The position numbers were made by a program, and so were the translations under genes. A stretch of DNA of 27,896 nucleotides from Escherichia coli. Lineage in GTDB: Bacteria; Pseudomonadota; Gammaproteobacteria; Enterobacterales; Enterobacteriaceae. Shown here piece after piece: positions 4,914 through 9,995 of this stretch (its first letter is position 1; every line of letters begins with the position of its first letter). The notes beneath the pieces were generated by a model. It was not told where the DNA came from, did not search any database, and saw only the letters and a list, made by a program, of their open reading frames with translations. Location: NCBI RefSeq assembly GCF_003334255.1, contig NZ_QOWU01000061.1; one strand, given 5' to 3'.

Positions 4914-6038
4914 ATGAGCAATCTGAGCCCTGACTTTGTACTACCCGAAAATTTTTGCGCTAACCCGCAAGAGGCGTGGACCATTCCTGCCCGTTTTTAT
5001 ACCGATCAGAACGCGTTTGAACACGAAAAAGAGAACGTCTTCGCCAAAAGCTGGATTTGCGTCGCTCACAGCAGCGAACTGGCGAATGCCAATGATTATG
5101 TGACGCGTGAGATCATTGGCGAAAGCATCGTGCTGGTACGCGGTCGTGATAAGGTTTTGCGCGCGTTCTATAACGTGTGTCCGCACCGTGGTCATCAGTT
5201 GTTGAGCGGTGAAGGAAAAGCAAAAAATGTGATTACCTGCCCGTATCACGCATGGGCATTCAAACTCGATGGCAACCTGGCCCATGCACGTAACTGCGAA
5301 AACGTCGCCAATTTCGATAGCGACAAAGCGCAACTGGTTCCGGTGCGTCTGGAAGAATATGCCGGATTCGTCTTCATCAACATGGACCCCAACGCCACCA
5401 GCGTAGAAGATCAATTACCCGGCCTGGGCGCGAAAGTGCTGGAAGCCTGCCCGGAAGTCCACGATCTGAAACTGGCGGCCCGCTTTACCACCCGCACGCC
5501 TGCCAACTGGAAGAACATTGTCGATAACTATCTCGAGTGCTATCACTGTGGTCCGGCGCATCCAGGTTTCTCCGACTCCGTACAGGTTGATCGTTACTGG
5601 CACACCATGCACGGTAACTGGACGCTGCAATACGGTTTCGCCAAACCGTCCGAACAGTCGTTTAAATTTGAAGAGGGTACGGATGCGGCATTCCACGGTT
5701 TCTGGCTGTGGCCGTGCACGATGCTGAACGTCACCCCGATCAAAGGGATGATGACGGTCATTTATGAATTCCCGGTGGATTCTGAAACTACCCTGCAAAA
5801 CTACGATATTTACTTCACCAATGAAGAGTTAACCGATGAGCAAAAATCGCTGATTGAGTGGTATCGCGATGTGTTCCGTCCGGAAGATTTACGTCTGGTT
5901 GAAAGCGTACAGAAAGGGCTGAAATCGCGTGGCTATCGTGGTCAGGGGCGCATCATGGCCGACAGTAGCGGTAGTGGCATTTCCGAACATGGTATCGCCC
6001 ATTTCCATAATCTGCTGGCGCAGGTGTTTAAGGACTAA
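4914..6038 (+). CDS. yeaW: Carnitine monooxygenase oxygenase subunit, Rieske [2Fe-2S] non-haem iron oxygenase (374 aa)
   Basis: In-frame ATG at 4914 preceded by AAAGG gives 374 aa MSNLSPDFVLPEN...; Rieske motif CPHRGH...CPYHAW present; the track ORF from 4794 is an upstream extension overlapping the yeaV 3' end. Confidence 0.9.
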   Translation: MSNLSPDFVLPENFCANPQEAWTIPARFYTDQNAFEHEKENVFAKSWICVAHSSELANANDYVTREIIGESIVLVRGRDKVLRAFYNVCPHRGHQLLSGEGKAKNVITCPYHAWAFKLDGNLAHARNCENVANFDSDKAQLVPVRLEEYAGFVFINMDPNATSVEDQLPGLGAKVLEACPEVHDLKLAARFTTRTPANWKNIVDNYLECYHCGPAHPGFSDSVQVDRYWHTMHGNWTLQYGFAKPSEQSFKFEEGTDAAFHGFWLWPCTMLNVTPIKGMMTVIYEFPVDSETTLQNYDIYFTNEELTDEQKSLIEWYRDVFRPEDLRLVESVQKGLKSRGYRGQGRIMADSSGSGISEHGIAHFHNLLAQVFKD

Positions 6039-6093
6039 TGACATCGGCGGCGGTATTTTCCGCCGCTGGGCTGATTTTTGATGGAGTACAGCA

Positions 6094-7059
6094 ATGTCAG
6101 ACTATCAAATGTTTGAAGTACAGGTGAGCCAGGTTGAACCCCTTACCGAACAGGTGAAACGCTTCACGCTGGTGGCAACCGATGGCAAACCATTACCTGC
6201 GTTTACCGGAGGAAGTCACGTCATTGTGCAGATGAGCGATGGTGATAACCAGTACAGCAATGCGTATTCACTACTGAGTTCGCCGCATGACACCTCTTGT
6301 TATCAGATTGCCGTTCGGCTGGAGGAAAACTCGCGCGGCGGTTCCCGCTTTTTGCATCAGCAGGTAAAAGTGGGCGATCGGTTAACGATTTCAACGCCTA
6401 ATAACCTGTTTGCGCTAATTCCCTCAGCCAGAAAGCATCTGTTTATCGCGGGCGGTATTGGTATCACCCCTTTCCTGTCGCACATGGCAGAGCTGCAACA
6501 CAGCGACGTCGACTGGCAGCTACATTACTGCTCGCGAAATCCAGAAAGTTGCGCATTTCGTGATGAGCTAGTCCAGCATCCGCAGGCTGAGAAAGTCCAT
6601 TTGCATCATTCATCAACCGGAACACGACTGGAATTAGCGCGATTATTGGCGGATATCGAACCTGGCACACACGTTTATACCTGTGGCCCCGAGGCGCTAA
6701 TTGAAGCGGTAAGAAGTGAAGCTGCGCGTCTGGACATCGCCGCCGATACGCTGCACTTTGAGCAATTTGCTATCGAAGACAAAACCGGCGATGCATTTAC
6801 CCTGGTGCTTGCCCGTTCCGGAAAAGAGTTTGTGGTGCCGGAAGAGATGACTATTTTGCAGGTTATTGAAAATAATAAAGCCGCGAAAGTGGAATGTTTA
6901 TGTCGTGAAGGGGTATGCGGAACCTGCGAAACAGCAATACTGGAAGGTGAAGCTGACCATCGGGATCAATATTTTAGCGATGAAGAGCGTGCCAGCCAGC
7001 AAAGTATGTTGATCTGTTGTTCGCGTGCGAAGGGTAAACGCCTGGTGTTGGATTTGTAG
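6094..7059 (+). CDS. yeaX: Carnitine monooxygenase reductase subunit, FNR-like flavin/NAD domain plus C-terminal plant-type 2Fe-2S ferredoxin (321 aa)
   Basis: ORF 321 aa; C-terminal CREGVCGTCE ferredoxin cysteine motif; located directly after yeaW. Confidence 0.9.
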   Translation: MSDYQMFEVQVSQVEPLTEQVKRFTLVATDGKPLPAFTGGSHVIVQMSDGDNQYSNAYSLLSSPHDTSCYQIAVRLEENSRGGSRFLHQQVKVGDRLTISTPNNLFALIPSARKHLFIAGGIGITPFLSHMAELQHSDVDWQLHYCSRNPESCAFRDELVQHPQAEKVHLHHSSTGTRLELARLLADIEPGTHVYTCGPEALIEAVRSEAARLDIAADTLHFEQFAIEDKTGDAFTLVLARSGKEFVVPEEMTILQVIENNKAAKVECLCREGVCGTCETAILEGEADHRDQYFSDEERASQQSMLICCSRAKGKRLVLDL

Positions 7060-7063
7060 TTTG

Positions 7064-7114
7064 CCGAAGCCGGATGTGGCGCTGAGCGCGCCCAGTCCGG
7101 CTTCGGAAGATTTT
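7064..7114 (+). terminator. Long GC-rich palindrome (REP-like) acting as terminator in the yeaX/rnd convergent gap
   Basis: Perfect 11-bp arms CCGAAGCCGGA (7064-7074) and TCCGGCTTCGG (7096-7106) with an inner GGCGC/GCGCC stem, followed by GATTTTAC on the plus strand; the GCCGGATG core resembles REP units. Confidence 0.55.
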
Positions 7115-8263: not shown

Positions 8264-8290
8264 CAAAAAAAACGCCGGATTAACCGGCGT
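8264..8290 (-). terminator. Hairpin plus U8 tract: fadD terminator and rnd 5'-leader translation-enhancing stem-loop
   Basis: On the minus strand ACGCCGGUUAAUCCGGCGU is followed by eight U; it lies between the fadD stop (8310) and the rnd start (8240). Confidence 0.75.
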
Positions 8291-8309
8291 CTGACGACTG
8301 ACTTAACGC

Positions 8310-9995
8310 TCAGGCTTTATTGTCCACTTTGCCGCGCGCTTCGTCACGTAATTCTCGTCGCAAAATTTTTCCGACGTTAGATTTCGGTAACTCATCACGA
8401 AACTCCACCAGCTTCGGTACTTTGTATCCCGTGAGCTGACGGCGGCAAAAAGTCACCAGTGACTCTTCGGTAAGCGATGGATCTTTTTTCACTACGAAGA
8501 TTTTCACCGCTTCACCACTGGAGCCGGAAGGTACGCCAACAGCCGCGACTTCCTGTACGCCAGGATGCTGCATGACGACATCTTCAATCTCGTTGGGATA
8601 GACGTTAAAACCGGAAACCAGAATCATGTCTTTTTTACGATCGACAATGCGCAGGAATCCTTCTTCATCCATTACCGCGATGTCGCCGGTGTGTAACCAG
8701 CCATTTTTGATGATTTCATCGGTAGCATCGGGACGCTGCCAGTAACCCAGCATCACCTGCGGTCCTTTGACACAAAGCTCACCCGGTTGACCTGGTGGTA
8801 CTTCATTATCATCATCATCCACCAGTTTGGCTTCCGTCGACGGCACCGGCAAACCGATGCTACCACTATGATAATCAATATCATATGGGTTAACGCTGAC
8901 CAGCGGCGCACACTCGGTAAGGCCATAGCCTTCCAGCAGATACTGTCCGGTCAGTTTCACCCAACGCTCTGCCACCACTTGCTGCACTGGCATCCCACCG
9001 CCTGCGGAAAGATGCAGACTGGAGAAATCCAGCTGCTGGAACTCTTTATTGTTCAGCAACGCATTGAACAAGGTGTTAACGCCCGTGATAGCGGTAAACG
9101 GATATTTCGCTAACTCTTTTACCAACCCTGGAATATCGCGCGGGTTAGTGATAAGCAGGTTCTGCCCACCCAGTTCGATAAACAGCAGGCAGTTAATGGT
9201 CAGGGCAAAAATGTGATACAGCGGCAGCGCCGTCACCACCAGCTCTTTGCCCGGATGCAACAGCGGACCATAGGTCGCGTTAACCTGTTCCAGGTTCGCC
9301 AGCATATTGCGGTGAGTCAGCATCGCGCCTTTCGCCACACCAGTGGTGCCGCCGGTGTATTGCAGAAAAGCTAAATCTTCCGGCACCAGTTCGGGTTTGA
9401 CGTACTGCATCCGGTAGCCGTTATGCAGTGCGCTACGAAATGAAATGGCATCTGGCAGATGGTATTTCGGCACCAAACGCTTGATGTATTTAACAACGAA
9501 ATTGACTACCGTGCCTTTTGCCGTAGATAGCTGATCGCCCATACGGGTCAGAATTACGTGCTGAACGGCGGTTTTATCAACCACTTTTTCCAGTGTGTGA
9601 GCAAAGTTAGACACGATAACAATCGCCGATGCGCCGCTATCGTTAAGCTGATGCTCAAGCTCACGCGGGGTATACAACGGGTTAACGTTTACGACGATCA
9701 TCCCGGCACGCAAAATGCCAAACAGCGCCACCGGATATTGCAATAAATTAGGCATCATCAACGCAACGCGATCGCCTTTCTTCAGCCCCAACCCTTGTTG
9801 CAAATAAGCGGCAAACGCGCGACTGCGTTCTTCCAGCTTGCGGAAGGTCATTACCTCCCCCATATTCACAAACGCAGGTTGATCGGCGTAGCGCGCGACC
9901 GACTGCTCAAACATATCTACCAGAGATTGATAACGGTCAGGGTTGATCTCCGTCGGAACGTCCGCGGGATAACGGTTAAGCCAAACCTTCTTCAA
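8310..9995 (-). CDS. fadD: Long-chain-fatty-acid--CoA ligase (acyl-CoA synthetase), 561 aa
   Basis: Adenylate-forming enzyme motifs ([17 protein letters not shown]-loop-like; GYGLTE); in-frame TTG at 9995 preceded by a GAGGTGA Shine-Dalgarno gives the 561-aa product [10 protein letters not shown]...; the track ORF 8310..10061 is an upstream over-extension. Confidence 0.85.

Follow-up and report, generated by a model that had tools for sequence, protein, structure and literature searches.

The window analysed here, a stretch of 27,896 nt of Escherichia coli DNA, is a K-12-type sequence whose position x corresponds to position x+1879751 of NC_000913.3. On its + strand, the genes for the oxygenase (yeaW) and reductase (yeaX) subunits of carnitine monooxygenase are separated by a spacer of 55 nt, most of which is taken up by a stem-loop at 6044-6069. 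Read up to the start codon, the spacer is UGACA-UCGGCGGCGG-UAUUUU-CCGCCGCUGG-GCUGA-UUUUU-GAU-GGAG-UACAGCA-AUG, and the features of the junction are as follows.

4914-6038, + strand: yeaW (MG1655 b1802), carnitine monooxygenase oxygenase subunit, with stop codon TAA at 6036-6038
6039-6043, + strand: UGACA linker from the yeaW stop codon to the stem
6044-6053, + strand: 5' arm of the hairpin, UCGGCGGCGG, placed by fold and covariation
6054-6059, + strand: hairpin loop UAUUUU, which varies across Escherichia species (UCUAUU, UUAUUC)
6060-6069, + strand: 3' arm of the hairpin, CCGCCGCUGG, with U6067 in a G.U pair
6070-6074, + strand: GCUGA spacer from the stem to the U-run, the source of the non-canonical terminator geometry
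6075-6079, + strand: U5 run, four of whose U are invariant in 16 of 16 Escherichia and Citrobacter sequences
6083-6086, + strand: yeaX Shine-Dalgarno sequence GGAG, 7 nt ahead of the ATG
6094-7059, + strand: yeaX, reductase subunit, with ATG at 6094

Structure of the yeaW-yeaX spacer

A preliminary description of this DNA had reported a hairpin composed of CGGCGGCGG (6045-6053), UAUUUU (6054-6059) and CCGCCGCUG (6060-6068), lying between the oxygenase and reductase genes and ahead of the ribosome-binding site of yeaX, and its sequence, coordinates and position all proved correct (GGAG at 6083-6086, ATG at 6094). The trailing U-run that was reported with it is indeed present (GAUUUUUG, 6073-6080), but it does not abut the stem, from which it is separated by the 5 nt GCUGA. 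The core stem contains one wobble, G6046.U6067, and is extended by U6044.G6069 to 10 pairs (6044-6053 with 6060-6069). With 10 bp, eight of them G-C, and a loop of 6 nt, the hairpin is GC-rich and falls within the range of terminator-type structures (stem of about 5-14 bp, loop of 3-8 nt).

The stem-loop at 6044-6069 is a real structure. Its folding energy, the calculation of which had been proposed as a check in the preliminary description, is -19.4 to -19.7 kcal/mol and far beyond chance, given that dinucleotide shuffles reach -7.3 +/- 2.3 kcal/mol (z -5.2) and that none of 200 shuffles is as good. The whole spacer folds at -26.2 kcal/mol (z -4.6), and the hairpin still forms when it is folded with 151 nt of context. 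Among the simple hairpins of the 27.9-kb window it ranks third when either strand is considered and first on the + strand; the fold of the minus strand is weaker (-14.9 kcal/mol) and is followed by no U-run.

When the Rfam 15 covariance models were run over 6039-6093, no match was found at the gathering thresholds, nor at E <= 1. The hairpin was unannotated until now, while the class to which it belongs, that of operon-internal mRNA hairpins, is well known. Elsewhere in the window, Rfam matches above threshold fall at 8266-8351 (- strand), which is the small RNA sroD downstream of fadD, and at 27400-27850 (- strand), which is a cspA-type thermoregulator leader. A match to the manganese (yybP-ykoY) riboswitch RF00080 at 25710-25806 (+ strand), presumably the mntP leader, reaches 41.6 bits (E 3.5e-8), slightly short of the gathering score, which is 45. 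Two strong tandem hairpins without a U-tail (-21.9 and -22.7 kcal/mol) are found at 20208-20265 (- strand), just downstream of a minus-strand ORF of 518 aa (20278-21834), where they lie within the last codons of a convergent ORF on the + strand, whose end is at 20274. A long REP-like stem-loop, CCGAAGCCGGATGTGGCGC...GCGCCCAGTCCGGCTTCGG, occupies 7064-7107 (+ strand), where yeaX and rnd converge. It comes after the yeaX stop codon and has AAGAUUUUAC behind it, so that the operon ends in a protective hairpin and not in a canonical terminator.

Covariation and variation of the stem

The stem, designated helix 1, was examined in an alignment (A2) of 16 Escherichia and Citrobacter spacers, which are related sequences, so that the counts given here are not counts of independent events. 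Helix 1 is in register in 16 of 16 sequences; 91.3% of its cells are paired, none of its pairs is invariant, and six of the 10 pairs are altered on both sides with pairing kept (e.g., G-C, C-G and U-A at one position). At least five distinct versions of the stem occur. When the two tested helices are taken together, the paired share of cells is 88.6%, and sliding the 3' partner by 1-3 columns lowers it to 35.5-55.6%. The covariation score of 0.245 compares with 0.131 or less in the slid versions; the observed pairing or covariation is reached by 0 of 500 shuffles. RNAalifold recovers helix 1 together with one outer covarying pair (U-A, C-G) that is lost in Escherichia. Over the eight core pairs, 112 cells are Watson-Crick, 13 are G.U and 2 are A.C. 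Since a G.U pair on the + strand would read as a C.A mismatch if the helix were formed by the opposite strand or by a palindrome in the DNA, this 13:2 excess argues that the constraint acts on the sense RNA. The alignment thus indicates that the stem-loop is kept by selection as a sense-strand RNA structure, and a helix so selected makes a role inside the polycistronic mRNA credible.

Within E. coli, a 42-nt query was found in 4373 of 5426 complete genomes, at a median of 1 and a maximum of 2 places per genome, and the element is thus single-copy. A REP/BIME or other dispersed repeat is ruled out by this copy number and by the lack of a match to the GCCGGATG... consensus. Over 6039-6080, 3794 of the 4373 genomes are identical to the window and the other 579 differ at one position. 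The variants inspected (O157, O145 and strain 4FM) have C at 6067, by which the G.U pair becomes G-C, and the same C is present in other Escherichia species and in about 13% of E. coli genomes. The stem is kept in other Escherichia species, with a G.U pair elsewhere in the stem in E1V33 and E. whittamii, while three of the six loop bases are changed and the 25 nt from the stem to the ATG are identical in all. The yeaW-yeaX junction is missing from 1052 of the 5426 complete genomes, so that the locus is accessory within the species. A truncated match in a DH5alpha assembly (CP045741; L001, NZ_CP045741.1, 3090-3140), in which the spacer and the yeaX start are garbled and both yeaV and yeaX are annotated as frameshifted pseudogenes, is probably an assembly error and no true rearrangement of the hairpin.

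Gene order and hairpins in related operons

When one genome per species was scanned, 80 cntA/yeaW loci were found, in 78 of which both the oxygenase and the reductase gene could be placed. Direct adjacency of the two genes, as seen for yeaW and yeaX, is confined to Escherichia, some of the Citrobacter and a few further loci; 61 of the 78 loci carry a 1.5-kb gene between them. The product of this intervening gene falls in the succinate-semialdehyde dehydrogenase subfamily (TIGR01780, 702 bits), and the gene corresponds to the malic semialdehyde dehydrogenase gene (msadh) of the carnitine operon of A. baumannii (PMC11353897). In the Citrobacter species with the full operon (cntA-msadh-cntB), cntA is followed by a spacer of about 18 nt that holds a hairpin in 0 of 8 cases, and the msadh-cntB spacer contains, in 8 of 8 cases, a hairpin followed by CUGAUUUUU, 2-3 nt and GGAG; the latter spacer is plainly homologous to the yeaW-yeaX spacer of E. 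coli. The preliminary description had treated the hairpin as an element of the oxygenase-reductase junction. Because the same module lies between msadh and cntB in the full-operon relatives, it is better described as belonging upstream of the reductase gene, and a post-oxygenase hairpin as a conserved unit is ruled out for enterobacteria by the same counts (0/8 after cntA, 8/8 before cntB).

In the Citrobacter species with adjacent genes, the last msadh codons (CCAGRGGCTGTAA) remain between the cntA stop codon and the hairpin (L015:3623-3699, L016, L018 and L083, compared with L012 and L014; the corresponding window positions are 6036-6044), and these codons are a clear deletion scar. In E. 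coli, the TGACA that follows the yeaW stop codon resembles the TAACGATGACA that follows the msadh stop codon in three Citrobacter loci, a short match on which homology can be proposed only tentatively. Comparison of these loci indicates that the hairpin is an ancestral element of the upstream region of the reductase gene, and that it adjoins yeaW only through the loss of msadh. Across Escherichia and Citrobacter, the module ahead of cntB/yeaX consists of a GC-rich hairpin, 1-5 nt, U5-6, 2-3 nt, GGAG, 6-7 nt and the ATG.

The E. coli cluster dmlA-yeaV-yeaW-yeaX looks like a complete carnitine-to-pyruvate cluster minus msadh, which fits the reported inability of E. coli K-12, B and BL21 to use carnitine for growth (PMC11353897). 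Given that failure, the physiological role of the operon itself in E. coli is unclear.

Hairpins at the same operon were also sought in other lineages, where a hairpin was counted if it reached -10 kcal/mol or better and was confined to the intergenic spacer just upstream of the reductase gene; z-scores and such intergenic-confined hairpins replaced a fixed 60-nt post-stop window, which was confounded by GC content and coding sequence. Of the 78 species-level loci, 56 have such a hairpin directly ahead of the reductase gene, with stems that are unrelated in sequence between groups. It is found in all loci of Escherichia (4/4), Citrobacter (13/13) and Paraburkholderia (14/14), in 9 of 12 loci of Pseudomonas, in 13 of 22 of Acinetobacter and in 0 of 6 of Xenorhabdus. 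No hairpin stands ahead of cntB in Xenorhabdus, Serratia and some Acinetobacter, and since several taxa are without it, the element is not essential to the system. Judged from these loci, intercistronic hairpins recur in this operon but not universally. Upstream of cntA, by contrast, the junction lacks structure in all groups but Pseudomonas, where 6 of 10 loci have z <= -2. Between cntA and msadh, a hairpin within the first 60 nt after cntA is found in 22 of 22 Acinetobacter loci (L031-L068) and in all 10 Pseudomonas loci with msadh; the stems differ by lineage and the tails are mostly not U-rich. In Paraburkholderia (L047-L077), the msadh-cntB spacer often holds canonical-looking hairpin+U7 terminators (GCGGATGCGG...CCGCATCCGC followed by U5-7), after which 100-150 nt more precede cntB, which suggests that cntB of this group may be transcribed from a promoter of its own or rely on regulated read-through.

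Possible roles in termination, processing and the supply of reductase

The preliminary description had suggested that the hairpin could act as a partial terminator or stabilise the mRNA, and so set the ratio of YeaW to YeaX. In intrinsic terminators the U residues nearest the stem count most, and a U-rich tract of about 7-9 nt beginning 0-2 nt from the stem base is expected. The tail was evaluated with a TransTermHP-style score. Although the GC-rich stem-loop of such a terminator is found here (-19.4 kcal/mol), the U-rich tract is not. The tail GCUGAUUUUUGAUGG scores -2.13 against a window background of -2.08 +/- 0.59, 37% of window positions are as good, and the five canonical terminators of the same window have tail scores of -4.85 to -5.88. 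A non-U spacer of 4-5 nt follows the stem in 14 of the 16 related sequences, and in 16 of 16 the U-run keeps a constant distance to GGAG (2-3 nt), as does GGAG to the ATG (6-7 nt). In the two sequences whose stem-to-U-run spacing is altered, the U-run holds its position relative to the ribosome-binding site; in these same two relatives it almost touches the stem and the tails are terminator-like (tail scores of -3.35 for L019 and -4.48 for L021). The suggestion of a partial terminator is weakened by a U-run that lies 5 nt past the stem, has a tail score at background and tracks the Shine-Dalgarno sequence rather than the stem. By its register, the U-run more likely belongs to the ribosome-binding region of yeaX than to a terminator, and it would probably serve in the yeaX translation initiation region and/or as a linker accessible to endonucleases.

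A leaky intrinsic (Rho-independent) terminator or attenuator, at which some polymerases would stop in the U-run to give a yeaVW-only transcript and less yeaX mRNA, is accordingly an unlikely reading, but one that deserves to be weighed. It would be consistent with the GC-rich stem of 10 bp and the 6-nt loop, with a U5 run that lies 7-9 nt downstream of the stem base, where termination is expected to take place, and with a simple scan that flags the site as terminator-like; the two relatives in which the U-run adjoins the stem (-3.35 and -4.48) could point to ancestral or residual attenuation, and canonical hairpin+U7 terminators do precede cntB in Paraburkholderia. The five nucleotides next to the stem are nevertheless GCUGA and not U, the tail score is far from those of the true terminators of the window, and 14 of 16 relatives retain the non-U spacer. 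The 24 nt left before the start codon hold no yeaX promoter, so that termination must be weak if the enzyme is to be produced: any termination has to be leaky because yeaX has no room for a promoter of its own. From the layout of the spacer, intrinsic termination at the site, if there is any, is expected to be weak. The Adams 2021 and TERMITe tables contain no + strand 3' end for yeaV, yeaW or yeaX, which counts little against termination, since they list detected ends only, leave expression of the operon unstated, may be truncated and are to that extent uninformative. The only end that the Adams 2021 table gives for this locus is an antisense 3' end inside yeaX, at about 6921 of the window (- strand; MG1655 1886672), which means that transcripts from rnd extend some 190 nt into the 3' part of yeaX.

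We propose, with a probability of roughly 0.45, that the hairpin forms an intercistronic boundary for decay or processing in the sense yeaVWX mRNA and terminates transcription weakly, if at all. The effects that we infer concern RNA ends, decay and stoichiometry alike. The hairpin would stop 3'-to-5' exonucleases, and the yeaV-yeaW segment that lies upstream of it would thereby be shielded, either after endonucleolytic cleavage in the single-stranded GA/UUUUU linker or when decay comes in from downstream, and the reductase message, hence YeaX, would stay at or under the level of the upstream genes. RNase E prefers single-stranded A/U-rich segments, and the GA/UUUUU linker is a plausible entry point for it. 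In E. coli, the 3' ends of mRNAs are marked by stable stem-loops that lack U-tracts and that shield them from PNPase and RNase II (PMC6061677). The oxygenase YeaW is trimeric and is contacted transiently by YeaX, a monomer (PMC9508527), an arrangement that would fit a smaller amount of reductase message, and unequal demand for the two subunits is plausible. One feature of the class of mRNA-stabilising hairpins, a stable, selection-maintained stem-loop inside a polycistronic transcript, was found here, helix 1 being paired in the proportion given above (91.3%); the other would be an upstream segment that, owing to the hairpin, outlives or outnumbers the downstream one. The stem-loop keeps its register with the yeaX start region, whereas anything from 5 to 21 nt separates it from the upstream stop codon in the different relatives, a variation that argues against coupling to the terminating ribosome as a conserved feature. 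Register with the yeaX start would equally fit a role in yeaX translation or in protection of a 5' end.

The latter fit is the basis of another reading, on the whole unlikely, in which the element serves yeaX by insulating its translation initiation region from the coding sequence upstream, by offering a single-stranded U-rich ribosome standby or S1 site, and/or as a 5' hairpin on a processed yeaX mRNA. The distances among hairpin, U-run, GGAG and ATG are fixed, regardless of a stop-codon distance of 5-21 nt and of whether the upstream gene is yeaW or msadh, and two different msadh deletions, one in Escherichia and one in the adjacent-type Citrobacter, both spared the module. No processing site is evident upstream of the hairpin, however, the geometry is largely forced by the short spacers, and the model gives the comparative data nothing to test. 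It is a good deal less likely that the hairpin has no present function and is a leftover, for instance an old 3' hairpin of msadh persisting by inertia, or a DNA-level palindrome. The carnitine cluster of E. coli is degenerate, having lost msadh, supporting no growth on carnitine and being absent from 1052 of 5426 genomes, and several taxa are without any such hairpin; yet the compensatory double changes, the variable loop beside a kept stem and the 13:2 ratio of G.U over A.C cells suggest that an RNA helix of the sense strand is still under selection, and the element is not a dispersed repeat. Hardly to be expected is a repressive function of a second, weak hairpin at 6070-6092 (-7.0 kcal/mol), in which the U-run would pair with the Shine-Dalgarno sequence and repress yeaX translation. 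Although this hairpin appears when the spacer is folded to its minimum free energy (z -3.6 for the 24-mer), its outer pairs do not hold in 7-8 of the 16 sequences, only one cell is compensatory, its inner U.G and U-A pairs never vary and are uninformative either way, and its helix is not predicted by RNAalifold.

The proposed decay or processing boundary may be compared with known structures. Segmental mRNA stability is set by stem-loops such as the REP hairpins in malEFG and the pufBA-LMX hairpins of Rhodobacter, and a related case is papBA processing. The yeaX hairpin resembles these in being a stable hairpin in a polycistronic mRNA with no efficient terminator tail, in having its structure kept while its sequence drifts, and in standing where the upstream product would be needed in a larger amount than the downstream one. 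It differs from them in being single-copy and not a REP element, and in being tied to the start of the downstream gene and not to the end of the upstream one. The protective stem-loops found at the steady-state 3' ends of Rho-terminated E. coli transcripts and described by Dar and Sorek 2018 (PMC6061677) are likewise terminator-grade stem-loops with no directly adjoining U-rich tract, but they are situated at operon ends, whereas the yeaX hairpin is internal and stands 24 nt ahead of the start codon of a gene that is still to be transcribed. With canonical intrinsic and leaky internal terminators the hairpin shares a GC-rich stem, a short loop, a nearby U-run, an intercistronic position and a plausible unequal demand for subunits; from canonical intrinsic terminators it differs by the U-run shifted by 5 nt, the background tail score and the lack of an upstream A-tract. 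Leaky internal terminators reportedly tune operon stoichiometry, a finding attributed to Lalanne et al. 2018.

There is a very small chance that the hairpin-U5-GGAG module is a regulated attenuator, whose read-through or processing would answer a signal such as a protein, a small RNA, translation status or redox state. If that were true, the reductase would be tuned against the oxygenase, which would curb uncoupled NADH oxidation by free flavin/Fe-S reductase, and the hairpins ahead of cntB in Paraburkholderia, Pseudomonas and Acinetobacter would have arisen convergently in answer to the same problem. The comparison of operons shows the E. coli yeaW-yeaX junction to be a remnant of a complete carnitine catabolic operon, which will come as no surprise to a specialist. 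Should the hairpin, as a decay or processing boundary, lower the reductase relative to the upstream genes, it would be another operon-internal RNA structure that sets subunit ratios, here those of an enzyme that makes trimethylamine from carnitine in the gut.
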